This document shows, one piece after another, positions 678 through 58,906 of a stretch of 64,000 nt of DNA. Position numbers and translations under genes: made by a program. Positions within the stretch are counted from its first letter, which is position 1; every line of letters starts with the position of its first letter. A model generated the notes under the pieces. It did no database searches. It saw nothing but the letters and a program-made list of their open reading frames with translations, and was not told where the DNA came from. The stretch comes from Myxococcota bacterium (GTDB lineage: Bacteria > Myxococcota_A > UBA796 > CAJQPC01), in assembly GCA_036012755.1 (NCBI GenBank), contig DASCPX010000134.1:1-64000 (forward strand), read 5' to 3'.

Positions 678-1946
678 CTACTCGATGTAGCCCAGCTTCT
701 TCAGCTCCTCCGAGGTCTCCTCGCTGAGTTCCACCCGCTCCACCAGTGGGGTCGCTTCGGTCATCGCGCGCTCCCAGGCCTCTCGGGAGGCCCGGAGGTC
801 GTGGTCCACTGCGAGCGGGACGAGCTCCTCGGGGTCATGCTCGAGGTCGAAGACACCGAAGGCGGCCTTGGCCTTGGGAGAGGGGTCCCAGATGGCCTTG
901 TACCGACCGTCCTCTGACAGCGCCAGCTTGCCCTCGCGCTGGGAGACTATGGGGGTCGTCTCGAGCGAGACGGAGAAGGTGTGGTCGACGCCGAGTTCAT
1001 CACACAAGAGCTGGGCGGTGGCGGCATTCGACACGAACTCGGGGAGCTCGGTGCGAGCTCCGGACACGAGGTAGGGCACGCTGGTGAGCGGCTCGTAGAC
1101 CCAGTAGCCGTGGCCGACCACGCCGTGCTCGCCGAGGAGCTCTCCGTGGTCGCTCGTGAGCACGATGAGGGTGTCTTCCCGGTGCTGTCCAAGGGCCTCC
1201 AGGACCTCGCCGATCCGCAGGTCGGTGTCCTCGACTACAGCCCGATAGGCCTGCTGGTAGGCCAGGCGGGCTCCAGGTTCGTTGCGCTTGGCGGCGCCGA
1301 TCTCCAGCCCCATGCGCCCCTCGAACCACTCGGCGTCCAGGCCGTGCTCCTCCTGAGCCTCCGCCGAGGGCTTCAGCGGACTGTGGGGCCCGAGGAAGTG
1401 CAGGTAGGCGAAGTGACGGCCCCCTGGGGTCCAGTGCTTGACCACCAGCCCGCGGAACTCCTTCGCGAGCACCTTGTCGCTGACGCGGCGCCAGGCGTCG
1501 AAGCCTCGGTCGAAGCCGAGCTCCTCGGCGAGGTAGCCGTTGCTGTAGAGCCCGTCGGTGCGGAAGCCCTCTGCGGCGAGCACCTCGGACAACAGCGGCA
1601 TGTCCGGGAGCAGCGGGTAGCGACCCAGCTTGCCGGTGGGCAGGTCGAAGCCGTGGGAGCGCACATCAGCGCCGGTGAAGAGCGAGACGACGCTGGGAAC
1701 GGTCCAGGTCCCGCTGCTCCACGCGCGGGCCGATCGCTGCTGCCCGAGGCTGTCGATGTTCGGGGTATCGGCCTCTGCGAGCACGTCGGCTCGGAGGGTG
1801 TCGATCACGATGAGCACCGCGTTTCTCGGCGGGTCCTTCCGGAGCGTGCGGGCCGGGCTGGGGGGAGCCTCGGGGCCCACGTCCGGGCCCGGTTCCGCCT
1901 CCAGCGGAGCCTCCGGAGTGCAGCAGAGAAGCCACAACAGCGCCAT
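678..1946 (-). CDS. Sulfatase-like hydrolase/transferase (alkaline phosphatase superfamily), probable lipoprotein
   Basis: IVIDTLRAD, WTVPSVVSLFTG, GPHSP, TSDHGE, GHG motifs; C-terminal LKKLGY. Confidence 0.85.
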   Translation of the reverse strand: MALLWLLCCTPEAPLEAEPGPDVGPEAPPSPARTLRKDPPRNAVLIVIDTLRADVLAEADTPNIDSLGQQRSARAWSSGTWTVPSVVSLFTGADVRSHGFDLPTGKLGRYPLLPDMPLLSEVLAAEGFRTDGLYSNGYLAEELGFDRGFDAWRRVSDKVLAKEFRGLVVKHWTPGGRHFAYLHFLGPHSPLKPSAEAQEEHGLDAEWFEGRMGLEIGAAKRNEPGARLAYQQAYRAVVEDTDLRIGEVLEALGQHREDTLIVLTSDHGELLGEHGVVGHGYWVYEPLTSVPYLVSGARTELPEFVSNAATAQLLCDELGVDHTFSVSLETTPIVSQREGKLALSEDGRYKAIWDPSPKAKAAFGVFDLEHDPEELVPLAVDHDLRASREAWERAMTEATPLVERVELSEETSEELKKLGYIE

Positions 1947-7256: not shown

Positions 7257-8606
7257 TCAGGGGGCCAGGGCGTAGAGATCCTCGACGAAGGTCGTGTGCC
7301 CGAGCAGGCGCTTGCGGCCCGGCCAGTAGACGTCCCAGACGACCTCTCCCTCGGGCGTGATCTCCCGGAGCCGCGTCGCGCTGCCGTAGTTGTGCAGCGT
7401 GTTCCCGTTGTCCAGCCGCCAGGCTTCGCCGGCTGTCTCGCCGTGGACCCCCTCGCCCTCGCCAAAGGACCACACCATGTGCAGGGTCTCTCCGTCCTCG
7501 TCGATCTCGTACTCTCGAACCTCTGTCTCGTAGCTCGCTGATTCCAGGGACAGCAAGAGCGTGCCCTCGTCCGTGATCGTCGGGCCGTGCTGCCAGCTGA
7601 ACTTGGACTGTATGGGATCGAAGTCCCAGCTGTCAGCCATGCGCCCCCAGGCCGCGAGCGTCTCGCCGGTGGCGTGATCGATGCGCACCACCTCGCTCGT
7701 CATGAAGAACGAGAAGAGGAAGGTGTCGGTCTCCTCGTGCCACCACAGCGAGTTCGACTGGCACTCCGCCTGCGCGCCCATCTCCGAGTGGAAGTCGTCG
7801 CAGTCCCAGATCGTGTCCTGCGACCCGTCGGGGTTGATGCGCTCGAGCGTCTCGGAGTTGCCCTGGGCCCGCCCGTACGCGATGCTTCCGTCCGGGAGGT
7901 CGATGAAGGGGTGATGCAGCCCTGGCGCTTCGACGACGTCGACGACCGTCCCATCGATCTTCATGCGGACGATCTGTGAGCCGCGCCCCTCGTCCCAGTC
8001 CGCCCAGTACGTGGAGTGGTCGAGCATCAGCTCGTCCCCGGCCCGGTTCGTCTGGCAGTAGATGGTCCAGTCGTTGCCGGGTGTCTGGCGGGCCCAGACC
8101 ACGCGGCCTTGCCGGTCCATGATGAAGGTCCAGTAGACACCGCCGACCCAGCCCCCGGGCTTCTCGTTCATGCAGCCGAGGATGTAGTCGGCTCCAGTGT
8201 CCAGCTTGTCTGACACGGAGGTCTCTACCTCTGGTATCGGGAGACCGTCTGGCATGGACGCCGTCGTGATCGTCTGTGCATCCCCGGTCTGTGGTCCATC
8301 CCCGAAGTCGTTGACCAGGCGGACCTCTACGGTGGCTTCGTAGGGCACACCGAGGACGAGCTGCTCCACCTCGCCGATGGCGAGCTCCCGCTGGGGGGTC
8401 GTGGACCACTCCTCGCCTTCGAAGCGATACTCGAGCTGACCGGAGGCTTCGACCTGTTGGCTCCAGCTCGCGACCACGATCGATTCGTACTCGTCGTGGA
8501 GACGAAGCTCGATCGAGGCGAGCTCGGGGACGATCACTTCGGGGGTGCCGGTGTCATCGGCTGGTTCGCCTTTGCAGGCGAAGAGGGCTGCCAGCAGCAG
8601 GGTCAC
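7257..8606 (-). CDS. Arylsulfotransferase (ASST)-like beta-propeller lipoprotein
   Basis: LFAC lipobox; MDRQGRVVW, HHPF, SNSL, WQHGP, GEAWRLDNGNTL; AGGAG 9 nt before GTG 8606. Confidence 0.7.
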   Translation of the reverse strand: MTLLLAALFACKGEPADDTGTPEVIVPELASIELRLHDEYESIVVASWSQQVEASGQLEYRFEGEEWSTTPQRELAIGEVEQLVLGVPYEATVEVRLVNDFGDGPQTGDAQTITTASMPDGLPIPEVETSVSDKLDTGADYILGCMNEKPGGWVGGVYWTFIMDRQGRVVWARQTPGNDWTIYCQTNRAGDELMLDHSTYWADWDEGRGSQIVRMKIDGTVVDVVEAPGLHHPFIDLPDGSIAYGRAQGNSETLERINPDGSQDTIWDCDDFHSEMGAQAECQSNSLWWHEETDTFLFSFFMTSEVVRIDHATGETLAAWGRMADSWDFDPIQSKFSWQHGPTITDEGTLLLSLESASYETEVREYEIDEDGETLHMVWSFGEGEGVHGETAGEAWRLDNGNTLHNYGSATRLREITPEGEVVWDVYWPGRKRLLGHTTFVEDLYALAP

Positions 8607-8653
8607 AAGCAATGTCTCCTCGGAGGTGGGGCGGCACAAGATATATGGTGTCC

Positions 8654-9556
8654 ATGCTCCTGTCGCTCATCGCCTGCGCCGGTCAGACCCTGGAGCTCCA
8701 GGACGGACAGAACTACGCCTACACCGGCGAGATGACGGTGCCCACCGTGCCCACCGCCAGCGGGGTGGACATCGAGCTCTGCTGGGACCAGCTGAGCTCG
8801 GATCTGGCCTGCCACGACCTCGACGCTGCGGAGGACATCGATCTGTTGGCGCTCATCCGCTTCCCCCACCTCTCGGAGGAGGAGGTCGAGCTGGGCATCT
8901 CGAACGATGACCTCACACAGTCACAGCTGGACGGCTATGTCGCGCTGGAGACATCTGGAGAGACCTGCGCGAGCCTCGCCGCCTTCGACTTCTTCGGCAC
9001 GCCGATCGACGTGCCGGCCCAGTACAACAGCGAGGGCGGCACCTACCTCCTGATGCTGTCGACCGGGACGACGCCGGGCCAGGGAGCCCGCATGCTGACC
9101 TTCCTCGACCCGACCACCGACAGCGACGTCACGCGTGTGGACGTCGGTGACGGCTGTGGGCTCCTGGACTTCTCTGCCGATCTCGGCTCGCTGAACCAGG
9201 TCCCGGTCGAGCCGGAGGGCCCCTGGACGGTCGACTGGTCCGCGGTCACGACAAACGGCGCGGGGAACGACTTCGAGCCCGGGCACGTCGATCAGGTGAC
9301 CGTCGGGTTCTACGAGGGCCTCACCACAGCCGACCTGGAGGCCCGGTTCCTCGACCTGGAGCTCATCGCCACGAAGCAGTGGACGCTCCAGCTCACAGAG
9401 GTCCGCAGCTTCGTCGAGCTCGGCGACGCGACCAGCGACGGCCAGCCACTGTCGAGCCTCGACGGCGAGGGCGCCTGGATCCTCGCCTTGCGGTGCAGCA
9501 CCTGCTCGAACCCGGCGCCCTTGTTCCTGACCGTCCTGGCACCGGAGGCCGAGTGA
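8654..9556 (+). CDS. Hypothetical lipoprotein
   Basis: MLLSLIAC start, acidic ORF with strong GC3 bias, C-terminal LRCSTCSNPAP; stop overlaps next GTG. Confidence 0.7.
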   Translation: MLLSLIACAGQTLELQDGQNYAYTGEMTVPTVPTASGVDIELCWDQLSSDLACHDLDAAEDIDLLALIRFPHLSEEEVELGISNDDLTQSQLDGYVALETSGETCASLAAFDFFGTPIDVPAQYNSEGGTYLLMLSTGTTPGQGARMLTFLDPTTDSDVTRVDVGDGCGLLDFSADLGSLNQVPVEPEGPWTVDWSAVTTNGAGNDFEPGHVDQVTVGFYEGLTTADLEARFLDLELIATKQWTLQLTEVRSFVELGDATSDGQPLSSLDGEGAWILALRCSTCSNPAPLFLTVLAPEAE

Positions 9557-10815
9557 TCTGGCTGCTGGCATGCGGAAGCGGAATCCACGACGTCGACGCC
9601 GTGCTCTCAGAGGACATCCACACGGTGCTGACGGTGAGCTGGGCGACCGACGAGCCGACCCAGGGCCATGTCGAGTACTGGACTGACGGTGACCCGGCAC
9701 AGACGGGTCTGACGGAGCTCGGGACCGAGCACCAGGCGACGTTGTTCGCGCCGGCGGACACGACGGTCTCGTTCAAGATCGTCGTGCCAGAGGGGCGCGG
9801 AGACGAGAGCGGAACGACCACCGCGGAGACCGGCGCCCTGCCGCTGGACCTGCCGATCCTCGAGCTCTCGGGCCAGGCCCATGATGCGTTCATGACGGTC
9901 CCGCTCATCGGCCAGGTGACGGGGCCCTTGATCCTCGACGGAGCGGGGAACATCCTCTGGTACCACCTCGACGACCGGGGCCTCGACGTCTACCGCGCGC
10001 GGTTGTCCCTCGATGGCGAGAGCCTGCTCTACAACGCCGCCAGCGTCAGCGGGAATCCCGACGAAGGCTCTGAGCTCGTTCGCATCTCCCTGGACGGCTC
10101 CAGCGTGGAGACCGTGAGCGTGCCGCTGCTCGCCCACGACTTCGTCGAGCTCCCGGATGGCACGATCGCGGCCATGGTCGTGGAGTACCGGGACTACGAG
10201 GGCGAGGCCCTTCGGGGCGACAGCATCGTCGAGATCGCCCCAGATGGCACACAGACAACCGTGTGGAGCAGCTGGGACTGCTGGGACGTGGAAGAGACCC
10301 TCGACGACCCCGATCTGGGCTGGACCTTCGCCAACGCCTTGGACTACCACGACGGCGGCTACCTGCTGGGCATGCGCAACTTCAGCAGCATCGCCCGCAT
10401 CGACCGGGACGGCACCTGTGACTGGGTCTTCGGGCGGACCGGGGCGACCTTCGAGGCCGCGGACGGCTCCGCGACCTTCCTGCACCAGCACCAGTTCGAG
10501 CTCTTCGACGGTCGCCTGCTCGTCTTCGACAACGAGGGCCTCGCCGGTAGCCAGTCCAGGGTGCTGGAGTACGACTTCGACCCCGACGCCGGGCTGGCGG
10601 AGGAGATCTGGAGCTACAGTCCCACGCCCAGCATCTACAGCTTCGTCCTTGGCGACGTGGCGCGCATGGACGACGGGGACACGCTGGTGACCTGGTCCGC
10701 GTCGGGTCAGATCGACAGGGTCACGGCGGACGGCGAGGCCACCTGGACCTTGAACACGCCGGTGGGCTACGTGCTCGGATTCGACACGGTCTCGACGAGC
10801 CTCTACCCGCAGTGA
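9553..10815 (+). CDS. Arylsulfotransferase (ASST)-like lipoprotein with N-terminal Fn3-like region
   Basis: GTGA-coupled start MIWLLAC; AHDFVELPDG, FANAL, MRNFSSI, HQHQF, FDN, GDVARMDDGDTL. Confidence 0.75.
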   Translation: MIWLLACGSGIHDVDAVLSEDIHTVLTVSWATDEPTQGHVEYWTDGDPAQTGLTELGTEHQATLFAPADTTVSFKIVVPEGRGDESGTTTAETGALPLDLPILELSGQAHDAFMTVPLIGQVTGPLILDGAGNILWYHLDDRGLDVYRARLSLDGESLLYNAASVSGNPDEGSELVRISLDGSSVETVSVPLLAHDFVELPDGTIAAMVVEYRDYEGEALRGDSIVEIAPDGTQTTVWSSWDCWDVEETLDDPDLGWTFANALDYHDGGYLLGMRNFSSIARIDRDGTCDWVFGRTGATFEAADGSATFLHQHQFELFDGRLLVFDNEGLAGSQSRVLEYDFDPDAGLAEEIWSYSPTPSIYSFVLGDVARMDDGDTLVTWSASGQIDRVTADGEATWTLNTPVGYVLGFDTVSTSLYPQ

Positions 10816-12164
10816 TCCTGCTCGTCGCGAGCGCCCAGGCCGCTGGGTATTACGCCAGCGAGGGCGGCATCAGGGCCACCGGGCGCGCAGGTGCCTTCGT
10901 CGCCGGCGCCGATGATCTCTCCGCACAGACCTACAACCCGGCCGCGCTCTCACGGATCGATCGCCAGCTGACCTTCCAGCTGGCCGGAGTGCACCAGCAG
11001 GTGGTCTTCGACCGGGCGGACGAGGACGAACTGTCCTTCGACCCGGTCAGAAACGGCGCGGCGCCGATGCCCATCCCGGCCCTGGGCTTCGCCTTCAGCC
11101 CGCTCTCCAGGCTGACTTTGGCCATCGGCGCATACACACCCTACGCCCCCCGCTTTGCCTTCCCGGACGCGGGCCCCCAGCGCTTCACCCTGGTCGACTC
11201 GGTCGTGCTCAGCGGCAACGTCGGTCCCAGCGCCGCGTGGTCCTTTCGCGACCTGCACGTCGGCGCCGGTGTCGCCTGGACCTTCGTCTCGGTCGAGCAG
11301 AGCCTCGTCAGTCACGTGGCACCCCTGCAGTTCGCCCCAGAGGACAACCCGGACTACGACGTCGCGGTCTCCCTCGATCTGCTCGATCCCTTCGAGATCA
11401 CCTGGAACGCGGGCCTGTTGTACGACCGCGAGCGCTTCGCCGTCGGTCTCTCCTACACACCGCCGGTGCACTTCGAGCCGACCGGCACCCTGACCGCTGA
11501 CTTCAGCCGGAACACCTACTACGTGGGCGACAACGACCTGGGCAAGATCATCGCGAATCCGACGGCGACCGACGGGGACGTGGGCCTCGAGGTCGTGTTG
11601 CCGAGGGTCGTGCGCGCCGGGGTGCTCCTGCGACCCCATCCCAGGGTCGATGTCGAGGCCGACCTGGTGTGGGAGCAGTGGTCGTCGATGCCCACGCTGG
11701 AGGTCCAGGACCTCGACCTGGTGATCGAGACGGAGATGGCAGAGGACGTGCTGCTCGATGGGACCGTGTCGCTTCCTGGGGAGATGCAGGACGCCTGGGC
11801 GCTGAGGGTCGGGGGCCAGTTCGAGGCCACGCCGCGCTTCGACGTCCGCGCCGGGCTCTCCTACGAGACCTCGGCGGTGGCCCCGGAGTACCGCTCGGTC
11901 TTTCTACCCGACGGAAACGAGATCGGCTACGGACTCGGCGGCAGCCTCGGTATCAACGACGTGCTCGCCCTGGATCTGGCATGGTCGCAGGCCTTCGTTC
12001 CTGGTCACGAGCTCGATCCCTCCTGGGTCTACCAGGTACAGATCGACCCCAGCTCCGGCGAGGTCGGCGCTGGCAAGCGTGTCGGAGGGGGTACCTTCCG
12101 CTCGACCACATCGATGTTCGGCCTCGGGCTGAACTGGACTCCCCAACGCGAGGACCCCACATGA
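10812..12164 (+). CDS. OmpP1/FadL/TodX family outer membrane transport protein
   Basis: GRAGAFVAGADDLSAQTYNPAAL hatch motif, amphipathic beta strands, RAGLSYETS..P, PD motif. Confidence 0.85.
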   Translation: MILLVASAQAAGYYASEGGIRATGRAGAFVAGADDLSAQTYNPAALSRIDRQLTFQLAGVHQQVVFDRADEDELSFDPVRNGAAPMPIPALGFAFSPLSRLTLAIGAYTPYAPRFAFPDAGPQRFTLVDSVVLSGNVGPSAAWSFRDLHVGAGVAWTFVSVEQSLVSHVAPLQFAPEDNPDYDVAVSLDLLDPFEITWNAGLLYDRERFAVGLSYTPPVHFEPTGTLTADFSRNTYYVGDNDLGKIIANPTATDGDVGLEVVLPRVVRAGVLLRPHPRVDVEADLVWEQWSSMPTLEVQDLDLVIETEMAEDVLLDGTVSLPGEMQDAWALRVGGQFEATPRFDVRAGLSYETSAVAPEYRSVFLPDGNEIGYGLGGSLGINDVLALDLAWSQAFVPGHELDPSWVYQVQIDPSSGEVGAGKRVGGGTFRSTTSMFGLGLNWTPQREDPT

Positions 12165-12673
12165 TCCTGCTCTTTGCCTGCATCGGAGAGGGTGAGCCCG
12201 TCGACAGCGTCCCCGACGAGGCAGACACCGACACCGACACCGACGCCGACACCGACGCGGGCAACTCCGCGCTGACCGGGCGGCTGGGCGAGGCCCTCGT
12301 CGACACCGACTACCTCGGCACGGAGACGCTCTACTTCGTCGCCGACGAGGGCGCTGGAGAGGACCTCTGCCGCGTCTCCTACACGATGACCTCCACCGGT
12401 GCCCGCACGGACTGCAGCGACTGCGAGTGGGCCTTCGACCTCGTGCTGAGCGACCCCGTGGCCGAGACGGACGTGGGCTGCAGCGACCTGGACGTGGACC
12501 CGGCCGCCCTGGACGGAACCACGGTCTCCTATGGCTACACCTCCGAGTACGTAGGCCACGGCAAGGTGCTCTTCGTCGAGCAGGACGCGGTCTGGACCGC
12601 CGTGTCCTTCGCCACCTACGAAGCCCCGAACTTCGACTACGACTGGGAGTCGGGGTTCGTCGAGTACCGATGA
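12161..12673 (+). CDS. Hypothetical lipoprotein with DT-repeat linker
   Basis: ATGA-coupled start MILLFAC; DTDTDTDADTD; CSDCEWAF motif. Confidence 0.75.
   Translation: MILLFACIGEGEPVDSVPDEADTDTDTDADTDAGNSALTGRLGEALVDTDYLGTETLYFVADEGAGEDLCRVSYTMTSTGARTDCSDCEWAFDLVLSDPVAETDVGCSDLDVDPAALDGTTVSYGYTSEYVGHGKVLFVEQDAVWTAVSFATYEAPNFDYDWESGFVEYR
12224..12259 (+). repeat. GACACC/GACGCC hexamer repeat encoding (D-T/A)n
   Basis: gacaccgacaccgacaccgacgccgacaccgacgcg. Confidence 0.8.
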
Positions 12674-20175: not shown

Positions 20176-22550
20176 CCCAGCGCCCTCAGCTCGTCCTCGC
20201 GCTCCGGCGTGACGCCCGGCATGGCCTGGAGGCTCGGCGCCGGCACCCACGTGGCGCCGACCTTCACCGCTCGGCTGCCGTCCCCGAGCTGGAGGAAGGT
20301 CTCTGCGCGCCCCCTGAGCTGGACCTCGCCTTCGCCCTCGTAGCTGACCTCGCGGGTCTCCCGATAGCGCGTGACGACGAGCTCGAGTCCCCGGGGATCC
20401 CTCACGTCCGCGGGCAGGGCGTAGATCTCTCGGGGGACCTGCCGCTCCGAGGAGTCGATGTGGAGCTCCCCGTCCACCAGCTTCGGTGAGGCCAGGGAGT
20501 CCAGCGGGTCGTAGCCGGACCAGGCCGCGGAGAAGCCAGCGGGGTGCCTGAGCACAAGCGACATCGGCGAGGACATGACGCGCTTGTTCGTCCTCTTCAT
20601 CCCGATGCGCCAGGCCGCGTGTACAGGCCGACCCAGGGCCTCTGCGAGCTCGGCGGCAAGCTCCGCCGATCGCTCGGGAGAGGGCCGCTGCGGCTCCTTC
20701 TCCGCCGGATCGACCGCGAGGTCGTAGAGGCGCTCGCCCGCGGCGCTGAGCACCCACTTCTGCTGTCGGGTGAGCAGGCCCCACTCGTCGGTCCCGTAGA
20801 GCAGGTAGCCGAAGCCCAATGCCCGCTCTCGGAGGGGGTCGAGGTCATCGAGCAGCGAGGCGCCGTCGAGGTCGTCGTAGGGCAACTCGAGCGCGTCGAG
20901 GATGGTCGGTGTGATGTCGAGCAGGCTCACGGGGACATCGCTCCGCCCGGATTCGACCCCCGGGCCACGGACCATCAGGGGGACCCTGAGAAGCTCGTCG
21001 TGCAGTGTGTGTCCGTGCTCGAAGGAGCCGTGCTCCCAGAACTCCTCGCCGTGGTCGCTGTAGAAGACCACCAGATCGTCGTCGTCGAGGACGGCCAGGA
21101 GCCGCTGCAGCTCGTGGTCGAGGTACCTGACGTTCTGACGGTAGCGCGCGCGAACGTAGGGCTTGGCCTCCTCGCGGCGGGCGGCGCTCAGGGTCTGGAT
21201 CTCGCCGCGGGACATGCCCTCGGACAGCCCCACGGGGGGTTCGGGTGCCCACATCGAGCGGAAGGGCTCCGGCTCCCTGTAGGGCATGTGGGGCTCCATC
21301 AGGTGGACCATGAGCAGCACGTCGCGGTCGCGCCAGGCCTTCAGAGACCCCAGCGCCCGGTCGATCTGCGTGCGGACCGGAGAGACGAAGCCGTAGGCAT
21401 AGCGGGACCAGGCGCCGCCCATGCCGAAGGGGGTGTCGAGGAAGGCGTTGCCCACGACGCCGTGGGTCAGGAAGCCCTCCCTCGCCAGCCGTGCGGGCAG
21501 GTTGTCCTCTGGATCCCAGTGGTCTGGGTGTCGCCCGGACAAGGCGGTGCGGGCCGATGGCAGGGTCCACGGCGCCGATGATCGAGCCTGCTCGAAGACG
21601 AGCGCCTCGGCGGCCCAGGCGTCGATGTTCGGGCTGTCCTCGGCCGAGGCCCCATAGACCCCGAGCGCATCGACGCGGAGGGTGTCGACGAAGATGAGCA
21701 CGACGCGCCTGGGGTCCTCTTTCGGTGTGTAGAGCGCGGGCTCTTCCAGGAAGACGTAGTCGAGGTCGTCGCTGTCGCCCCCGTCGACCCGCAGCCGCAA
21801 GTCCACCCGCTCGCCGGCGTGCTCCGAGACGTCGATGCGGACACGCCGCCGGTGCCCGCCGTGCTCCAGCGCCAGCTGGTGAGTGATCTCTCCGTCGACC
21901 TCCAGCACCACGGTGGCGCCGTCACTCCTGGGGCCGAGGACCCACGGCGGGTCGAAGATGGTCGCCTCGAAGCCCACCACGCCGCGCTCGGGGACGAGCA
22001 CGTCCTCCCAGGTCAGCGCGGTCGGGGCGGGCATGAAGAGACCGCGAAATGCGTCCTGGCCCGGCTGCAGGCTGCCGGTGACGAACTCTTCGGGCTTTAG
22101 CCCGGACTCGGCGAAGTTGAGGCGTCTCTCCTTGTCGGTGGCGCGCTGGTAGTGGAGGGAGGCGTCCTCCGGCGGGCCCGCATCCTTGTCCCGTCGTACA
22201 CGCACGAGCTCCTCGCGCACGCTCCACGTGTTCACCGGCAAGGGATCGTCGTCGCTGACGCGGTCGTAGCGAGAGGTCGAGCCGTCGAACATCAGCTTGA
22301 GGCGCTGGGGGCGCTTCCTGGTGGAGTGGCCGAAGTCGATGTGCGACACGGGCAGGTCCGTGCGCCACTCGACCACGCCGTCGTCGTCCCTTCCGACCAC
22401 CCACCCCGAGAGCGGGACCTCGACCGGCGTCGCCTCGCCTCCCGGGCGGCTGGAGTCGGGGAGGTCCTCGATACTGAAGTCGATCCCCCGGGACAGGGGC
22501 ACGACGCCGGGTTCTCCGGGTTGGTCGCAGGCGATGAGCGCTAGCAGCAC
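20163..22550 (-). CDS. Sulfatase-like hydrolase/transferase lipoprotein
   Basis: MLLALIAC; VDTLRVD, PWTLPSAR, EPHMPY, SDHGEEFWEHGSFEHGH, LRALGY. Confidence 0.85.
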   Translation of the reverse strand: MLLALIACDQPGEPGVVPLSRGIDFSIEDLPDSSRPGGEATPVEVPLSGWVVGRDDDGVVEWRTDLPVSHIDFGHSTRKRPQRLKLMFDGSTSRYDRVSDDDPLPVNTWSVREELVRVRRDKDAGPPEDASLHYQRATDKERRLNFAESGLKPEEFVTGSLQPGQDAFRGLFMPAPTALTWEDVLVPERGVVGFEATIFDPPWVLGPRSDGATVVLEVDGEITHQLALEHGGHRRRVRIDVSEHAGERVDLRLRVDGGDSDDLDYVFLEEPALYTPKEDPRRVVLIFVDTLRVDALGVYGASAEDSPNIDAWAAEALVFEQARSSAPWTLPSARTALSGRHPDHWDPEDNLPARLAREGFLTHGVVGNAFLDTPFGMGGAWSRYAYGFVSPVRTQIDRALGSLKAWRDRDVLLMVHLMEPHMPYREPEPFRSMWAPEPPVGLSEGMSRGEIQTLSAARREEAKPYVRARYRQNVRYLDHELQRLLAVLDDDDLVVFYSDHGEEFWEHGSFEHGHTLHDELLRVPLMVRGPGVESGRSDVPVSLLDITPTILDALELPYDDLDGASLLDDLDPLRERALGFGYLLYGTDEWGLLTRQQKWVLSAAGERLYDLAVDPAEKEPQRPSPERSAELAAELAEALGRPVHAAWRIGMKRTNKRVMSSPMSLVLRHPAGFSAAWSGYDPLDSLASPKLVDGELHIDSSERQVPREIYALPADVRDPRGLELVVTRYRETREVSYEGEGEVQLRGRAETFLQLGDGSRAVKVGATWVPAPSLQAMPGVTPEREDELRALGYLD

Positions 22551-23976: not shown

Positions 23977-24061
23977 GGAGGCGTGGCCGAGTGGTCGAAG
24001 GCGTCGGTCTTGAAAACCGATGACCCTCACGGGTCCGTGGGTTCGAATCCCACCGCCTCCT
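23977..24061 (+). tRNA. tRNA-Ser (TGA)
   Basis: GGAGGCG/CGCCTCC acceptor stem, TCGGT-CT-TGA-AA-ACCGA anticodon arm, long variable arm, GTTCGAATC; CCA not encoded. Confidence 0.95.
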
Positions 24062-24079
24062 TTGTTCTTTTCAGGTTCT

Positions 24080-24171
24080 GGAGACGTGACCGAGTGGCTG
24101 AAGGTGCATGATTGCTAATCATGTGAGTGGGGAAACTTGCTCCGAGGGTTCGAATCCCTCCGTCTCCGCCA
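24080..24171 (+). tRNA. tRNA-Ser (GCT)
   Basis: GGAGACG/CGTCTCC acceptor, CATGA-TT-GCT-AA-TCATG anticodon arm, long variable arm, ends GCCA. Confidence 0.95.
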
Positions 24172-24184
24172 TCCCGTCTCGTGC

Positions 24185-24258
24185 GCACCCATAGCTCAAT
24201 TGGATAGAGCGTCGGACTACGGATCCGAAGGTTAGGGGTTCGATTCCTCTTGGGTGTA
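24185..24258 (+). tRNA. tRNA-Arg (ACG)
   Basis: GCACCCA/TGGGTGT acceptor, TCGGA-CT-ACG-GA-TCCGA anticodon arm, GTTCGATTC T-loop. Confidence 0.95.
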
Positions 24259-27687: not shown

Positions 27688-29159
27688 GGCGCCAACACGA
27701 GGTAGGCCGCACCCCTCTCGGCGTCATGGCCGTAGGCCCCGATGAGGAGGTCGTCTCTTCCGTCGCCGTCGATGTCCCCGGGCCCTGTCACGGAGGCCCC
27801 CGCGCGGTCGCCGTCGGTCTCGCTGTGGAAGAGCTGGTCGGCCTCGTCGAGCGAGTACGTGCCCGTGGGGCCGAGGCCCGCGGCGTACCACAGGTAGGCG
27901 GTGCCGCCCTGGTCGCCGGTGAAGAGCGCGCCGAAGATCAGGTCGTCGAGTCCATCGCCGTCGACATCGCCGGCAGAGTCGAGCGCGTCGCCGCTGTAGT
28001 CGTTGGGGGCCGAGCCGTCGAAGACCAGGTCCGCGGCGCTGATGTCGTAGGTGCCGGGCTCGGGCAGCGCCGCCCCGTAGAAGAGGTAGGTGTGGCCAGC
28101 GCTGCTCGCCGATCCGAAGGGGCCATGGGCTCCGACCAGGAAGTCGGCGAGTCCGTCCCCGTCGACATCGCCGGCGCCTGCGACCGCGCGGCCGAGCGAG
28201 GCCCGCTCCTCCATGCCGTCCCAGGAGTAGTCGAGGTCCGCGGCCGAACCGTCCGCCAGGCCCCCGAGCGAGAGGTAGGCGCGCCCCTGGTTGAGCTCGT
28301 CGCCGTTGTAGGTCCAGGCGCCAATCAGCACGTCCCCGAGCCCGTCGCCGTCGACGTCTCCGACCCCGGCGACGTCCATGCCCATGTTGTCCGCGACCGC
28401 CTCGCCGAGCGCGCAGGAGCTGGCCACGTCTCCGAGGGGGCCGCTCTGGAGCGCGGCGCCGCTGATCTGGCAGACACGTCCTCGCTGGTTGTCCCAACCC
28501 ATCGAGCCGACGAGGAGGTCGTCTTCGCCGTCCCCATCGAGGTCCTCGCCCCCGTCGATGGACCGACCGACGAACTCGAACTCCTCCTCGCCACGCACGA
28601 TGATGTCGGCCTCGGCCAGCGGATGGGAGCCGGGGGTGATGCTCGCGCCGAGCACGACATAGGCCGAGCCGGCCTGGTAGGCATCGCCGCTGTAGTACGA
28701 GCTGATGAAGAGGTCGGCGAGCCCGTCGCCGTCGATGTCTCCTGCCGGGGAGATGTCGCGCCCGGCGTGGTCGTCCTGGCCCTCGCCGTACCACTTGGAG
28801 GACACCTCCGCGATGTTCGTGGACAGCCCGCCCGAGATGTCCGTGGCTGTCACCAGGTAGACCTTGCCGGCGTCTTCATCCCCCTCGTCGTCGTAGCGAC
28901 CGGTCATCAGCAGATCGGGGCGTCCATCCCCGTCGACGTCACCGACCCCCGCCACGCGCCACCCGAACCAGTCCGCGGCGTTGAAGCCGGTGCCTTCCCT
29001 GCTCTCTCCCAGGAAGACGTGATCGGCGTCAGCGAGCTGCTCGGAGAAGACCGACTCTGCCGAGTCCGACACCGAGTCCGACACGCTGTCCACCGGGACG
29101 GACTCCGGCAGGCTGCGCGGCGGCTGGTCGGGGGCAGGGCACGCGAGGAGCAGAAGCAC
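27684..29159 (-). CDS. FG-GAP/integrin-alpha repeat lipoprotein
   Basis: MLLLLAC; seven GDxDGDGxxDLxxGA-type repeats. Confidence 0.9.
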   Translation of the reverse strand: MLLLLACPAPDQPPRSLPESVPVDSVSDSVSDSAESVFSEQLADADHVFLGESREGTGFNAADWFGWRVAGVGDVDGDGRPDLLMTGRYDDEGDEDAGKVYLVTATDISGGLSTNIAEVSSKWYGEGQDDHAGRDISPAGDIDGDGLADLFISSYYSGDAYQAGSAYVVLGASITPGSHPLAEADIIVRGEEEFEFVGRSIDGGEDLDGDGEDDLLVGSMGWDNQRGRVCQISGAALQSGPLGDVASSCALGEAVADNMGMDVAGVGDVDGDGLGDVLIGAWTYNGDELNQGRAYLSLGGLADGSAADLDYSWDGMEERASLGRAVAGAGDVDGDGLADFLVGAHGPFGSASSAGHTYLFYGAALPEPGTYDISAADLVFDGSAPNDYSGDALDSAGDVDGDGLDDLIFGALFTGDQGGTAYLWYAAGLGPTGTYSLDEADQLFHSETDGDRAGASVTGPGDIDGDGRDDLLIGAYGHDAERGAAYLVLAP

Positions 29160-53331: not shown

Positions 53332-55826
53332 CGGCGCCTGCGGACCAGGGCCAGGCCGAGGAGCCCGAACAGGGCGACACCACCGGCGGGGGTGCTGGTG
53401 GTGCAGCTGCAGCCGCCTCCCTTGTCGCCACCGTCGAGACCGGAGTCGCCGAACCCCGTGTCGCACCAGTCCCAGACGTCGGGGTCCTCGTCGTCGCAGT
53501 CGGCGTCGACGCCGTAGCCGTCGAGATCCTGGTCGTCGTCGTTGTCGTCGCAGTTCTGGTCGATGCCGTCGTACCAGGTCTCTTCGGCGTCGGGGTTGAT
53601 GTCCGAGTTGCTGTCGTCACAGTCGTCGCCGTCGTCGCCGCCGTCGAAGCCGTCACCGTCCTGGTCGTACTCGTCCGCCTCGTCGCAGTCGGTGACAATC
53701 CCGTCGTAGGGGGTATCCGGCGCGCCTGGGTAGGTGTCGGCGTCCGCGTCGTCACAGTCGTCGCCGCCGTAGGTCGCCGAGTCGTGGCCGTCCCCGTCGG
53801 CGTCGTAGTCCGAAGCCTCGTCGCAGTTCGAGTCGATGTCGTCGTACCAGGTGTCCTCTGCGTCCGGGTTGATGTCGGGGTCGTCGTCGTCGCAGTCGTC
53901 CCCGTCGGGGCACAGCTCGGAGAGGAAGCCGTCGGCGTCCACGTCGCACCAGTCGCTGCCGTCGCAGTCCTGGTCGATCCCGTCGTATGGGGTCTCCGCG
54001 GCGCCGGGGTAGCTGCCGGCGTCGTTGTCGTCGCAGTCGGTGTCGTCGGTCACGTAGTTGGAGGGCTGGTCGCACTCCACATCGCTGACATCAGGGTCGC
54101 CGAAGCCGTCCGAGTCGTTGTCCGCATACCAGGTGGTCGCGTCGACCGCGTCGTCCTCGTCGATGTCGCCCTCGCAGTCGTTGTCGATGCCGTCGCAGTA
54201 CTCCTTGGCGCCGGGGTAGGCCCTGGCGGCGGTGTCGTCGCAGTCGTCTCCGCCAACGACCGACGCGTCACCATCCCAGCCGCCGCTGTCCTGCGTGCAC
54301 TCGACGTAGCCGTCGCCGTCGTCGTCGGTCTCGTCGCCAGGGATCGAGCCGTCGCAGTCGTTGTCCTGCCCGTCGCAGAGCTCCGCGGCGCCGGTGTAGA
54401 CGGTGGCGTCGCCGTCGTCGCAGTCGTCCGTGTTGTCCGCCTCGCCCACGTCCGAGCAGTCCAGGTCGCTGGAGGTGACGTGGTCGGTGTCGCCGTAGCC
54501 ATCGCCGTCGTCGTCGGTGTAGCAGGTCTCCTCGTCGTCGCAGTCGCTGTCGACGCCGTCGGCGATGCCCTCTCTCTCGCCTGGGTTGATGCTGCTGTCC
54601 GAGTCGTCGCAGTCGGTGCCAGCCGTGACGTCTCCGCTGGCATCTGCGTCGCCGTAGTCGTCGCCGTCGGCATCGGTCATGCAGTCGGTGGCCGAGTCGC
54701 TGGGCGCTGCCCCGGGGTAGGTGTCCGCGTCGCTGTCGAGGCAGTCGGTGTCGTCCGAGACGTAGCCGCTGGGCTGGTCGCAGTCGTCCTGGGAGTCGCT
54801 CGCGTCGCCATAGCCGTCCGAGTCGTCATCCGCGTACCAGGTGTCCTCGTCGACGGCGCCTTCGTCCACCGTGCCATCACAGTCGTCGTCGTCCCCGTCG
54901 CAGTACTCGTCCGCGCCTGGGTAGATCGTGGCGTCGTCGTCGTCGCAGTCGTCCCCGCCGCAGACCTCTGCGAGCACCCCGTCGCCGTCGGCGTCGCAGA
55001 TCGAGCAGAGATCGGCCTCCACCTGGATCTCGGACTGGGCGCCGGACTCGGTGTCCGAGAGGGTCACGAGGAGGGCGAAGCTGGTGCTGTCCCCCGCTGC
55101 GATGGTGCTGACGTCGTGGCGCCAGTGCATCGTGTAGTCCCCCGAGGCGCTGCTTTCGTCCGTGAGGGTGGCGTCGGCGTCCATCTCCCAGCCGCTGCTG
55201 TGACCGTACTCGTCGCCGGTCTGGCAGCCGTAGAAGCCGACCGTGTACCCGGACGAGGTCCCGATCGACTGCACCATGTCGTCCGAGCCGTCTCCGTCGA
55301 GGTCCTCGACCGAGTTGTAGGTGTTGTAGTTCGAGCTGTACCCGCCGCAGCCCCCGGCGTCGGGATCCGGGTCGATGGCGTGCACGAACTGGAGGTCGCT
55401 CACGTCGCTCGTGCCCGTGTTCTCCACGATGTACTGGACCGACATGACCGTGCCGGAGACCTCCCAGTACTCGATCTTGGTGATCTCCAGATCCCCCGCC
55501 GTCCACTCGTAGACCGAGACCATCTCCGTGCTCGTGGACAGATCGGTCTCGCTGTCGACCGTGAGCGTCGCGCCGTAGTAGCTGTTGGCGTAGTAGTCGT
55601 AGCTGGAGCCACCCTGGTCGTACATGAAGGCGACGTGCGACCAGGGAGTGCCCGGGTAGGTGAAGTCGCAGAAAGAGGTCGCGGTCCCGGTGCTGTCGTA
55701 CTCCAGCCCCTCGCCGAGGCTGCCGCTGTAGTCGTTCCAGGCGCCGTTGTCGTCGTAGGTCGCCTGGATGTAGTCGCCGGTCAGGGACTGGGCGGCCAGT
55801 GCTGGGAGCACGAGAGCGAACAGCAT
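53322..55826 (-). CDS. Secreted MopE-type (DCDD..PGA.E.CDG.D.DCDG) repeat protein with MYXO-CTERM-like tail
   Basis: More than ten Asp/Cys repeats; C-terminal KGGGCSCTT..hydrophobic..RRRR. Confidence 0.9.
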   Translation of the reverse strand: MLFALVLPALAAQSLTGDYIQATYDDNGAWNDYSGSLGEGLEYDSTGTATSFCDFTYPGTPWSHVAFMYDQGGSSYDYYANSYYGATLTVDSETDLSTSTEMVSVYEWTAGDLEITKIEYWEVSGTVMSVQYIVENTGTSDVSDLQFVHAIDPDPDAGGCGGYSSNYNTYNSVEDLDGDGSDDMVQSIGTSSGYTVGFYGCQTGDEYGHSSGWEMDADATLTDESSASGDYTMHWRHDVSTIAAGDSTSFALLVTLSDTESGAQSEIQVEADLCSICDADGDGVLAEVCGGDDCDDDDATIYPGADEYCDGDDDDCDGTVDEGAVDEDTWYADDDSDGYGDASDSQDDCDQPSGYVSDDTDCLDSDADTYPGAAPSDSATDCMTDADGDDYGDADASGDVTAGTDCDDSDSSINPGEREGIADGVDSDCDDEETCYTDDDGDGYGDTDHVTSSDLDCSDVGEADNTDDCDDGDATVYTGAAELCDGQDNDCDGSIPGDETDDDGDGYVECTQDSGGWDGDASVVGGDDCDDTAARAYPGAKEYCDGIDNDCEGDIDEDDAVDATTWYADNDSDGFGDPDVSDVECDQPSNYVTDDTDCDDNDAGSYPGAAETPYDGIDQDCDGSDWCDVDADGFLSELCPDGDDCDDDDPDINPDAEDTWYDDIDSNCDEASDYDADGDGHDSATYGGDDCDDADADTYPGAPDTPYDGIVTDCDEADEYDQDGDGFDGGDDGDDCDDSNSDINPDAEETWYDGIDQNCDDNDDDQDLDGYGVDADCDDEDPDVWDWCDTGFGDSGLDGGDKGGGCSCTTSTPAGGVALFGLLGLALVRRRRQA

Positions 55827-55963: not shown

Positions 55964-56812
55964 ATGCTCCTGCTTCTCGTGGCCTGCGGAATGGACCCTC
56001 TCGGCGGCGTGCCGGACAACGCTGTGCGCGGTCGCGTCTGTGACCCTGCCAACTCCCTCGGCGTGGTGGGCGCCGAGGTCAGCTCCGGCGACGCCGGGAC
56101 CGTCACGGAGCCCGGCGGCGTCTTCCTGCTCGAGGGGCTCGCCGACGGCGAGCACACGCTGATGGTCGAGAAGGGTCGCTTCAGCACGATGATCGACGTG
56201 GAGCTCGACGGTGTCGGTGTCGACCTGGACGAAGCCTGCCTCGACGCTGGCTCGGTCGCGGTCGCCTTGATCCGTGGCGGAGCGGACGATGTCGGTGTCG
56301 TGCTGGACGAGCTCGGCATCACATACGACAGCTACGAGGACGCCCAGCTGTTGCGCGACAGGGACTCGCTGCTCCAGTACGACGTGCTCCTGTTGCCTTC
56401 CGGCATCGAGGACACCTGGACGGAGCAGGAGCAGGCCACGGGCAAGGTGCTCGAGGACTTCCTGGTCGAGGGAGGCAGCGTCTACGCCTCTGGAGCCAGC
56501 TCCGATCTCGTCGACGCCGCCATCTCAGAGGACGTCGAGTTCATCGCGCTGGACCGCGGGTCCATGCTTCGGACCAAGGTCCTCGACGACAACATGCGCA
56601 AGCACCTGGGCTCCTCCGACGCCACCGTCGAGGCCACGAGCTGGACCGCGATGGCCACGACCGATGGCCGCGTGCTGCTGCAGGCCGACGCGCCGATCGC
56701 CGCGACGCTGGATGTCGGCGAGGGACGCCTCACATACACGAGCTTCCACTACGGTCCGGACGTCAACGAGGACACCTGGATGCTGCTCGAAGAGATGCTG
56801 CTGTCGCTCTGA
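55964..56812 (+). CDS. Lipoprotein with carboxypeptidase-regulatory-like N-domain and GATase-like C-domain
   Basis: MLLLLVAC; VRGRVCDP..VVGAEV..G.F.LEGL; YDVLLLP, FLVEGGSVY, GEGRLTYTSFH. Confidence 0.6.
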   Translation: MLLLLVACGMDPLGGVPDNAVRGRVCDPANSLGVVGAEVSSGDAGTVTEPGGVFLLEGLADGEHTLMVEKGRFSTMIDVELDGVGVDLDEACLDAGSVAVALIRGGADDVGVVLDELGITYDSYEDAQLLRDRDSLLQYDVLLLPSGIEDTWTEQEQATGKVLEDFLVEGGSVYASGASSDLVDAAISEDVEFIALDRGSMLRTKVLDDNMRKHLGSSDATVEATSWTAMATTDGRVLLQADAPIAATLDVGEGRLTYTSFHYGPDVNEDTWMLLEEMLLSL

Positions 56813-56815
56813 TCG

Positions 56816-58357
56816 ATGAGCCTGCTGCTCGCGCTGGCCTGCAGCGACCCGAAGCCTCCGAACGTCCTCGTCGTCACCTTCGACACGACGCGGGCGGACC
56901 ACGTCGACCTCGTCGGTCAGGGCACGCCGAGTTGGAAGGGGCTGGCCACTACCGGGCGGGTCTTCACCGACGCGTACACCCCCGCTCCGGTCACGCTGCC
57001 GGCGCACGTGAGCCTGTGGACCGGGCTCGACCCCGACGAGCACGGGGTGCGCGCCAACGGCCTCTACCAGGCGCCAGGGGAGCTGGAGTTCCTCTCCGAG
57101 AGGCTCCGTGCCGCGGGGTGGTCGACCGGCGCGGTCGTGGGCGCGCTGCCGCTTCACTCCCAGTTCGGCACGGACCAGGGCTTCGATCACTTCGACGACG
57201 AGGGGCTCTCCGTCACGGAGCGGCCCTTCGACCCGGAGCGCGACGCCACCGCAGTGACCGACGCGGCGCTGGCGATGCTGCCCGAGCTCGAGCCGCCGTA
57301 TCTGTTGTGGGTCCACTACTTCGACCCGCACCTCCCATGGGCCGAGAGCTACTCGGCGGAGATCCGAGAGGCGGACGAGGAGCTCGGTCGGTTGCTCGAA
57401 CACATAGACGACAACACGCTGATCGTGGCGACGGCAGACCACGGAGAGGGCCTCGGCGACCACGGTGAGCGGACCCACGGATACCTGCTCCATCGCGCCA
57501 CGCTGCACGTTCCCCTGGTGCTGTCGGGGCCGGGAGTCACCCACGGCGTGGAGCGTCGACGGGTGAGCCTCACGGATGTTCCGGCGATGGTCATGCACCA
57601 CCTCGATGGCTCCACCTGGGAGCCCGAGGACAGGCCTCTCTACGCCGAGTCCGAGATGCCGATGGCGGTGGGAGCCGCGCCGATCCAGTCGCTCTTCGTC
57701 GGAGACGCCCGCATCGTGCGGACCACGAGGGACCGGCTCTTCATCGGCGCCGAGGAGACCCCGAGCGAGGACCCCGAGCTCCTCGCCGAGCTGGGCGCGC
57801 TGCTCGACGAGCGCCCGATGGGGACCGCGAAGAGGGCGACGCTGGAGGAGCAGACCCGTGTGGAGCTGGAGGCCCTGGGCTACCTCATGTCGCGGGATGA
57901 CCGCGGGCTCGACATCTACGAGCACCTCGACCGGATCGAGTCTCCCCAGCGCATTCCGCCAGAGGTCCTCGCCGATCCCGCGCTCCTGGCGACCTTCCTG
58001 GCTCGGAACCCGGACCCTCACAGCTGGGCAGAGGCCCTCTCGAGGACCTCGTCGAGCCAGGTGGCGCCTCACCTGGATGCCGCTTCGGCGCTCTTCCCCG
58101 ATGACCTGCTCATCCAGGCGCTCGTGGCCTGGCACGGCCCCTCTGATGAGGCCCTGGAGCGCGTGCTCGCAGACCAGGGTCCGCTCCGGAGACGCTCCCC
58201 CGCCGTCCTGGTCATCGCCTCCGAAGCGGCCCTGAAGCTGGACCGCGACGACGACGCCCGCCGGCTATGTGAGGAGCTCGACGGGCAGGTCTTCTTCGAG
58301 CCGGACCTGCTCCAGCGGCAGGCTCGACTGCGACAGCAGCTAGAAAGTCATCCTTAG
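56816..58357 (+). CDS. Sulfatase-like hydrolase/transferase lipoprotein
   Basis: MSLLLALAC; FDTTRAD, VTLPAHVSLWTG, FDPHLP, ADHGEGLGDHGE.THG, LEALGY. Confidence 0.85.
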   Translation: MSLLLALACSDPKPPNVLVVTFDTTRADHVDLVGQGTPSWKGLATTGRVFTDAYTPAPVTLPAHVSLWTGLDPDEHGVRANGLYQAPGELEFLSERLRAAGWSTGAVVGALPLHSQFGTDQGFDHFDDEGLSVTERPFDPERDATAVTDAALAMLPELEPPYLLWVHYFDPHLPWAESYSAEIREADEELGRLLEHIDDNTLIVATADHGEGLGDHGERTHGYLLHRATLHVPLVLSGPGVTHGVERRRVSLTDVPAMVMHHLDGSTWEPEDRPLYAESEMPMAVGAAPIQSLFVGDARIVRTTRDRLFIGAEETPSEDPELLAELGALLDERPMGTAKRATLEEQTRVELEALGYLMSRDDRGLDIYEHLDRIESPQRIPPEVLADPALLATFLARNPDPHSWAEALSRTSSSQVAPHLDAASALFPDDLLIQALVAWHGPSDEALERVLADQGPLRRRSPAVLVIASEAALKLDRDDDARRLCEELDGQVFFEPDLLQRQARLRQQLESHP

Positions 58358-58906
58358 ACCACCGCGGGCCAGGAAGCCCTTCTGGTGGACGTCTCCGAGC
58401 TCCTCGTGCTCTGTCGGCGTGAGCCAGCCGTAGCCGAACTCCACGCCGGCACGCAGGCCCACCCGGCGATCAACGAGGATCACGTCGAAGCCGCCCACGG
58501 CGAGCCCTCCGAAGTCCATCGCCGAGCCCCTGATGGGCACGCCCAGGTCGTCCTCGGTGTCGTCGTCGAGGCGCGTCCGGGACCACAGGAGGCTGCCTTG
58601 AGCGAGCACATAGGGCTCGATGCGCCACAACCTGTAGATGTCGGCGCGGAGGCCGATGTCCCACTGGTCGCTGCCGCGGCGAAGCTCCAGCGCCGTCTCG
58701 TCGGGCAACGACAGCTGTTCGACGACGCGACGGTGATGCCAGGTGAGCACAGTGCTGAGGCGGGGATTCAGATCGACGCCGATGCGCACACCGGGAGCGT
58801 GGACACGGTCCTTCTCGAGCTCCAGCCCGTCGTGCTGGGTGTGACTCATGACGTCGAAGCCGACGTCGACGTCCGCTGCGAGTGCAGTCGCGATCAAGAG
58901 CATCAT
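58340..58906 (-). CDS. Small outer membrane beta-barrel protein
   Basis: Alternating beta strands, EPYV, C-terminal GGLRMTF. Confidence 0.7.
   Translation of the reverse strand: MMLLIATALAADVDVGFDVMSHTQHDGLELEKDRVHAPGVRIGVDLNPRLSTVLTWHHRRVVEQLSLPDETALELRRGSDQWDIGLRADIYRLWRIEPYVLAQGSLLWSRTRLDDDTEDDLGVPIRGSAMDFGGLAVGGFDVILVDRRVGLRAGVEFGYGWLTPTEHEELGDVHQKGFLARGGLRMTF

Follow-up and report, generated by a model that had tools for sequence, protein, structure and literature searches.

The question raised by the stretch of DNA studied here (the window: 64,000 nucleotides, positions 1 to 64,000 of contig DASCPX010000134.1, assembly GCA_036012755.1 of a Myxococcota bacterium) is whether lipoproteins and other extracytoplasmic proteins can be exported behind N-terminal signals of only 6–11 residues without positive charge. 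An interpretation based on the nucleotides and their open reading frames, here called the sequence-only reading, had proposed this for the whole lineage and had deduced an unusual mode of recognition by Sec, Lgt and LspA. In the predicted proteins, translation starts are indeed this short, the basic n-region is lost, a processing motif stands at the homologous site and the cargo is extracytoplasmic. Export and lipidation of the proteins with short signals are likely.

Short N-termini in the window and in the genome

The sequence-only reading had singled out twelve N-termini, nine with a lipobox and three of signal peptidase I (SPase I) type, and all of them translate as claimed. The candidate signals in the window are the following:

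9553..9573, plus strand: 7-residue lipoprotein signal with Cys7 and a GTG start, arylsulfotransferase-family protein (PF05935), gene 9553-10815; start overlaps the upstream stop, homologues
10812..10841, plus strand: 10-residue SPase I-type signal, FadL/OmpP1 outer-membrane barrel (PF03349), gene 10812-12164; Pfam match, homologue series
12161..12181, plus strand: lipoprotein signal of 7 residues (Cys7), gene 12161-12673, without a Pfam family; the start overlaps the stop of fadL (ATGA)
8654..8677, plus strand: lipoprotein signal, probably of 8 residues, gene 8654-9556; ambiguous start
8574..8606, minus strand: probable 11-residue lipoprotein signal, second arylsulfotransferase-like protein (7257-8606); alternative starts would place the Cys at 13 or 22
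1920..1946, minus strand: signal of 8-9 residues with Cys-Cys at its end, sulfatase-family protein (678-1946); stop four codons upstream, Pfam match
22527..22550, minus strand: 8-residue lipoprotein signal, sulfatase-family protein (20163-22550); stop four codons upstream, Pfam match
29139..29159, minus strand: 7-residue lipoprotein signal, FG-GAP repeat protein (27684-29159); no start in the 36 codons upstream, Pfam match
55794..55826, minus strand: 11-residue SPase I-type signal, MopE-repeat protein (53322-55826); translation, domain motif
55964..55987, plus strand: 8-residue lipoprotein signal, gene 55964-56812; stop four codons upstream
56816..56842, plus strand: 9-residue lipoprotein signal, sulfatase (56816-58357); stop two codons upstream, Pfam match
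58877..58906, minus strand: 10-residue SPase I-type signal, 188-residue protein (58340-58906); translation
60373..60399, minus strand: 9-residue lipoprotein signal, gene 58903-60399; no start in the 86 codons upstream, overlap with the upstream stop

Several of the twelve starts are constrained, as had been stated, and only that at 8654 is ambiguous. The start overlaps an upstream stop (GTGA or ATGA) at 9553, 10812 and 12161, and alternative upstream starts for 9553 and 12161 would lie at least 20 codons inside the preceding gene. No ATG, GTG or TTG stands between the start and the nearest in-frame upstream stop at 56816 (two codons) or at 1946, 22550 and 55964 (four codons each), and the same codons are absent in frame from the full distance back to the previous stop at 29159 and 60399. 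GTG is the start codon at 9553, 10812, 22550 and 29159. At 8654, three further starts in the same frame, located 2, 3 and 14 codons upstream, allow a Cys at position 8, 10, 11 or 22, and a scan of 8400-8800 for sigma-70 promoters found none. The lipobox at 1946, L-L-C-C, is atypical.

Genes of the genome that contains the window (G000; 6.73 Mb, 68% GC, 96% complete) were called with a hexamer model built for this analysis, and 5,629 were kept. Constrained starts were picked blind to cysteine: they overlap an upstream stop or are the first possible start at most 8 codons from an in-frame stop. Lipobox-type N-termini follow 444 of these 2,812 starts, and in 350 of them the Cys is at position 7, 8, 9, 10 or 11 (76, 130, 82, 40 and 22 cases). 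Lysine or arginine (K/R) is absent from 341 of the 350 and present in 9; among the 94 longer constrained lipoprotein signals, 58 contain K/R. Short lipobox-type N-termini exceed chance: they follow only 1 of 4,160 internal control starts, and a lipobox-like first Cys at position 7, 8 or 9 was found in 56, 61 and 41 of the 1,314 starts that overlap a stop, compared to 4, 2 and 3 among 4,416 internal ATG, GTG or TTG controls. The genome-wide histogram of first-Cys positions, proposed as a check of the sequence-only reading, peaks at 7–9 with few cases at 13–15, and the signals are truly short and free of charge. By a looser rule, 1,028 of the 5,629 genes are lipobox candidates, corresponding to a very large candidate lipoproteome of roughly one gene in six.

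If the true starts lay upstream, by way of rare start codons, read-through or a frameshift from the upstream gene, a normal n-region might be supplied and the short signals would be an annotation artefact. Besides the ambiguous start at 8654, a possible upstream start that would give a 15–35-residue signal with K/R exists for 99 of 878 short candidates. However, 427 of the 1,028 lipobox candidates have no in-frame ATG, GTG or TTG able to put the Cys beyond residue 11, and in 192 candidates the Cys lies at most 16 codons from an in-frame stop (at most 10 in 45), whatever codon initiates. Initiation signals argue in the same direction, since promoter and Shine-Dalgarno (SD) motifs stand in register with the short starts: among 605 non-coupled short starts, a -10-like TANNNT is present at -13/-12 in 100, where controls have no more than 1 at any position, and 82 have GGAG at -10/-9. 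Independently called homologues, moreover, show the same short N-termini. The stop-bounded set largely refutes an artefact, which we consider extremely improbable.

In about 570 of 5,533 G000 genes, a start close to the one that scores best is preceded at 12–13 nucleotides by a TANNNT hexamer, an indication that leaderless translation is common in this genome. The median Cys position is 8 for leaderless and translationally coupled starts and 10 for SD-led starts, and the Cys is at position 11 or earlier in 145 of 159 leaderless, 183 of 214 coupled and 220 of 353 SD-led candidates, with 302 candidates outside these classes. Where the ATGA overlap allows K/R at residue 2, these residues occupy it in 3 of 138 coupled short lipoproteins, compared to 249 of 947 other coupled genes (p 3e-13), and K/R are also depleted relative to Ser, Thr and Asn (p 3e-4). 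Expression level as cause of the short signals found no support in codon bias, which did not differ between short (n = 332) and canonical (n = 40) signals when judged with a crude reference set (p = 0.18).

For SPase I-type signals, A-x-A motifs end at residues 9, 10, 11, 12 and 13 in 25, 23, 46, 18 and 22 of 269 short hydrophobic N-termini, a class that was selected as uncharged, and so has no charge by definition, and that includes some missed lipoproteins and cytosolic enzymes; the corresponding numbers among 77 controls are 0, 0, 1, 1 and 0. Mean hydropathy in this class falls to about zero by residue 11–12, and there is neither a basic n-region nor a membrane-spanning h-region.

That the cargo is extracytoplasmic was borne out by Pfam matches of window proteins and of a genome sample and by sets selected by domain. 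Pfam matches were obtained for 8 of 11 window proteins and comprise arylsulfotransferase, sulfatase, FG-GAP, carboxypeptidase-regulatory-like and FadL-barrel families. The genome sample consisted of 145 of the 878 short candidates, namely those in the 20 densest 20-kb regions, represented by their first 330 residues. Matches in 63 of the 145 include a family-5 solute-binding protein, an L,D-transpeptidase, M15 peptidases, a c-type cytochrome and 15 MopE-repeat proteins as well as FG-GAP, Ig-like, CotH, subtilase and sulfatase domains; two, an ABC-2 permease and RpiB, were judged by eye to be clear false positives. Among proteins selected by domain motif, a short lipobox was found in 17 of 29 MopE-repeat, 22 of 34 FG-GAP and 3 of 17 multi-CxxCH proteins, and by eye the remaining MopE proteins mostly have SPase I-type stubs of 9–12 residues.

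Homologues and distribution in the Myxococcota

Homologues of two window proteins indicate what has changed. For the 9553 protein, 120 of 593 matches were listed and examined, of which 118 have a Cys within the first 45 residues (median position 16), in most cases judged by eye a lipobox-type Cys before the mature arylsulfotransferase domain. K/R are present in 70 of the 73 listed homologues with the first Cys at 13–30, with Polyangiaceae and Nannocystaceae among the names, and 2 of the 3 closest relatives among those listed have an uncharged signal with the Cys at 7–8. For FadL (10812), 100 of 112 matches could be scored (leader lengths corrected by +1), and 49 of these have 8–14 uncharged residues ahead of the same mature N-terminus; the distant relatives scored have signals of 20–41 residues with K/R in 14 of 14 cases. 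Residue 11 of the window protein aligns to residue 1 of mature E. coli FadL, although the alignment is weak. Since homologues keep the same Cys or mature N-terminus, these alignments indicate that the processing site is conserved and only the leader shrank.

Named homologue matches point to the Myxococcota. A 21-base pattern for a stop-coupled start of a 7-residue lipoprotein signal has 42 occurrences in G000 and 19 in one member of its family; the other 399 of 401 genomes of the phylum have 0–7. Among the 154 genomes of the order, nine from two families have 15–56 matches and the rest 0–7, and a single genus of the second family includes counts as low as 0 and as high as 25. Because the pattern depends on coupling and codon use, relatives were also sampled directly (100 kb from 16 and 60 kb from a 17th). 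Short signals defined by rule make up 63 of 164 lipoproteins in 13 genomes within the order (range 0/11 to 7/9), compared to 4 of 50 in 4 genomes outside it, where 1 of 50 is stop-bounded at position 11 or earlier. Signals of Myxococcota outside the order are fairly short, about 13–20 residues with one Arg. Across all genome contigs, a scan for the pattern in its strictest form found at least 116 stretches, and by eye the matches listed include plausible gene starts from 14 genomes. A SecY tree, which left out 6 of 28 rows (G473, G477, G478, G071, G176 and G002), requires two changes for the four extreme rows included and does not distinguish gains from losses. The trait is graded across one order of the Myxococcota and extreme in several lineages; the claim that it characterizes the lineage holds as a gradation across the order, with the extreme state in 9 of 154 genomes.

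Translocation and processing machinery

G000 encodes five Lgt, two LspA and one Lnt over cut-off, and three S26 peptidases. The LspA motifs with the catalytic Asp pair align to the solved structure, and one Lgt of the five was aligned to the E. coli enzyme through conserved motifs, the assignment of catalytic arginines being our assumption. A tandem lspA-lspA-lgt-lgt run lies at G000:C59:100000-102591, and three more lgt genes are located elsewhere. All 40 genomes searched, including those of other classes, have 2–7 Lgt copies, and LspA copies range from 0 to 3 in 28 genomes. An expansion of Lgt and LspA as cause of the short signals was rejected, as these copy numbers are ordinary for the phylum. 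Unusual Lgt or LspA enzymes, which the sequence-only reading had anticipated, thus gained no support: both align normally with solved structures, and the predicted set of Lgt, LspA, Lnt and LepB is complete and ordinary-looking.

Alternatively, the stub might not be processed classically, being either retained as an uncleaved N-terminal anchor or acylated at its Cys by an enzyme other than Lgt. According to the part of PMC9360617 that was available, the signal helix enters LspA between transmembrane helices 2 and 4 in a model, and a 6-residue stub offers little helix. However, both motifs, the L-L-[AGS]-C lipobox and A-x-A, coincide with the processing sites of homologues that have normal signals, the mature N-terminus of FadL starts directly after the stub, and Lgt, LspA and Lnt are all present, so that we regard non-classical processing as very unlikely.

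Among the components shared by all Sec signals, G000 has one SecY, one SecA and two strong SRP54-family matches, one of which was shown to be Ffh. At the SecY position that corresponds to E. coli I187 in the alignment, all 28 genomes of the order that were compared have Ala or Ser, whereas 28 genomes outside it have Ile (23), Met (3), Ser (1) or Thr (1). At the position of F192, Thr, Ala or Ser in 28 of 28 genomes of the order contrast with Phe, Met or Tyr in 27 of 28 outside. In SecA, the position aligned to E. coli L372, which we take to line the signal-peptide groove, is Tyr in 17 of 17 genomes of the order and Leu, Val or Ile in 14 of 14 outside, with numbering inferred from an alignment to 2fsf (offset 8). 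The neighbouring A373 is itself retained, and the PrlD site A488 is Gly in G000 and Ser in G014. In the accessible text of Cannon et al. (PMC2171872), I187 is named as the fourth residue of the isoleucine ring, a region where prlA sites cluster, and mutations of this kind are noted at I191, I278 and I408, all of which are retained in G000 SecY; in that of bioRxiv 10.1101/2021.08.31.458331, A373 is a PrlD site at which Val, Ile or Phe give Prl phenotypes. For Sec, as opposed to Lgt and LspA, the supposition of unusual recognition thus gained order-wide substitutions in SecY and SecA.

Shrinkage of both SPase I- and SPase II-type signals makes a shared Sec step, targeting or gating, the likelier site of change. 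Judging from the sequences, we see about an even chance that the stubs are functional minimal Sec signals exported via a naturally Prl-like SecA-SecYEG. Such a signal would consist of fMet, 4–7 hydrophobic residues and a motif for processing, either a lipobox (recognized by Lgt/LspA/Lnt) or A-x-A (by LepB), and export through SecA-SecYEG would receive much of its targeting from the mature domain; mature domains do carry their own targeting signals, according to the available part of PMC5412566. With Ala or Ser in place of the pore-ring Ile of SecY and Tyr beside the PrlD site of SecA, the translocase would be easily triggered, and the minimal hydrophobic stub may suffice as trigger. A helix of 6–8 residues at 1.5 Å per residue spans 9–12 Å; a classical N-in anchor would then require an extended stub or a thinned membrane and is otherwise unlikely. 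More likely than a loop on the cytoplasmic side, the stub would reach the outer leaflet by slipping through the lateral gate or along it and present its motif to the peptidases, and the depletion of K/R at residue 2 would fit an N-terminus obliged to insert into the membrane or pass across it. Once proofreading had relaxed, new ATG, GTG or TTG starts inside Leu/Val/Met-rich h-regions could have removed n-regions from one gene after another, a process most advanced in leaderless and translationally coupled genes, and the greatest shortening at precisely these starts would fit such an origin. The full scenario is put forward tentatively, as possible rather than probable: the order would have fixed a natural Prl-type translocase (SecY I187A/S and F192T/A/S; SecA L372Y) that let most of the lipoproteome in several lineages shed the n-region and most of the h-region, with N-terminus-first crossing and the stub as a handle for Lgt/LspA or LepB.

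Several observations weigh against a Prl-type translocase as the explanation. SecY I187 is a ring member, yet outside the prlA sites listed in the accessible text of PMC2171872, and neither I187A/S nor L372Y is described as a Prl allele in the literature examined, which comprised main texts; searches aimed at these two sites yielded nothing of use. At the thresholds used, 11 columns of SecY, 14 of SecA and 4 of Ffh are diagnostic for the order, and the highlighted sites represent 2 of the 11 and 1 of the 14; as any order has diagnostic columns by descent, the SecY/SecA pattern is one phylogenetic event and not a correlation. Two genomes of the order, G161 and G020, carry both substitutions, yet their 100-kb samples contain no short signals (0 of 7 and 0 of 11, respectively), and the outgroup G289 has an independent Ser at SecY 187, yet signals of 13–20 residues (4 lipoproteins in 60 kb). 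The substitutions are therefore insufficient for the trait. Nor did we find a radical change in SecY, SecA or Ffh between extreme and mild genomes; the columns that tell them apart are conservative or poorly aligned. Finally, Pal in G000 has retained a basic signal of 17 residues. As a side observation, second SecA-like copies exist in four genomes outside the order (G018, G286, G206 and G116).

Essentially standard Sec might instead tolerate hydrophobic stubs followed by acidic mature domains, in which case the shortening would be drift and the SecY/SecA substitutions incidental. The gradation of the trait across an order whose members have these substitutions in common, the absence of a distinguishing machine change in extreme genomes and the already modest signals of other Myxococcota, with their single Arg, are in line with this explanation, and residues 1–30 of mature lipoprotein candidates are indeed acidic, with a mean net charge of -4.9 and negative values in 93%. 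Drift under a standard Sec system nevertheless appears unlikely to us, considering that rule-based short signals are nearly absent outside the order and that the active depletion of K/R at residue 2 is unexpected under simple tolerance.

A dedicated accessory factor or another route, such as an altered signal recognition particle, YidC or an unknown chaperone, could also recognize the uncharged fMet-hydrophobic stub. The stub is strongly stereotyped, as seen in the narrow peak of Cys positions, and the M-domain loop of Ffh differs between the order and outgroups, whose Pro and Gly are replaced in the order. A minority class with classical signals persists in G000 besides Pal, as if two classes coexisted. 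In other genomes in which most lipoproteins have lost theirs, Pal likewise has a classical basic signal of 14–17 residues. BamD was uninformative as a test lipoprotein, since by eye its signal is of SPase I type in most genomes of the class, where it apparently has no lipobox; a few keep the Cys, as do the two genomes of other classes. On the other side, no duplicates of SecY, SecA or Ffh were found in G000, although no screen for genes specific to extreme genomes was made, and Tat-like N-termini are rare (6 of 2,812 constrained starts), the short signals having no Arg and hence no twin-arginine motif. We consider such a factor or route decidedly unlikely.

Relation to known signals and consequences

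The PROSITE lipoprotein rule expects the Cys at about 15–35. In mode of action, the short signals would resemble those of the Sec/SPase II and Sec/SPase I types; in n-region and length, they depart from both. With E. coli Lpp-type Sec/SPase II signals, they share a lipobox L-[AS]-[GA]-C with the invariant +1 Cys after a hydrophobic run, the encoded Lgt, LspA and Lnt, and homologues with the same Cys behind normal signals, whereas the positively charged n-region and the Cys at about 15–35 are both missing and the uncharged form with Cys at 7–11 is the majority form in G000 (definitions from the available part of PMC9360617, labelling rules of SignalP 6 from that of PMC9287161). Sec/SPase I signals have in common with them the hydrophobic core, A-x-A, outer-membrane or periplasmic cargo (FadL, BamD, MopE proteins) and S26 peptidases, but the G000 signals total about 9–14 residues and are uncharged, without a distinct n-region. 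Changes in the SecY pore ring and the SecA Stem are shared with E. coli prlA and prlD mutants, in which they lower signal dependence (PMC3101351, PMC2171872, PMC4826270, bioRxiv 10.1101/2021.08.31.458331, each as far as accessible); those are laboratory alleles at I191, I278, I408 and A373, whereas the changes described here, known from sequence alone, are natural and order-wide and affect I187, F192 and L372. Targeting signals in mature domains (Chatzi et al. 2017, PMC5412566, available part) offer a route for a weak signal to reach SecA; E. coli, however, still needs the signal peptide as trigger, and here the trigger would be a stub of 6–8 residues. Literature searches found no published description of the trait, and the part of PMC11495043, a paper on the taxa, that was available does not mention lipoproteins; most subscription journals were outside the coverage of the searches, so that absence from print is not established.

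With regard to the window itself, the cluster at 7257-12673 comprises two divergently oriented arylsulfotransferase-like lipoproteins, the FadL barrel and two uncharacterized lipoproteins, and three sulfatase lipoproteins are encoded elsewhere in the window. The cluster and the sulfatases hint at scavenging of sulfate esters or lipids. Rfam matches in the window are limited to three consecutive tRNA genes on the plus strand (23977-24258), right after a gene for a 439-residue protein at 22630-23949.

Minimal signals or a relaxed translocase could serve protein secretion engineering, and the envelope proteomes of the order are probably under-annotated. The basic n-region and the tripartite signal are treated as nearly universal and are built into prediction rules. 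In a free-living lineage, about 80% of constrained lipoprotein signals consist of 6–10 uncharged residues, which would set a new natural lower bound. The graded series of 154 genomes, together with three nameable substitutions, bears on the role of the n-region, on whether loop insertion is obligatory and on proofreading by the translocase.

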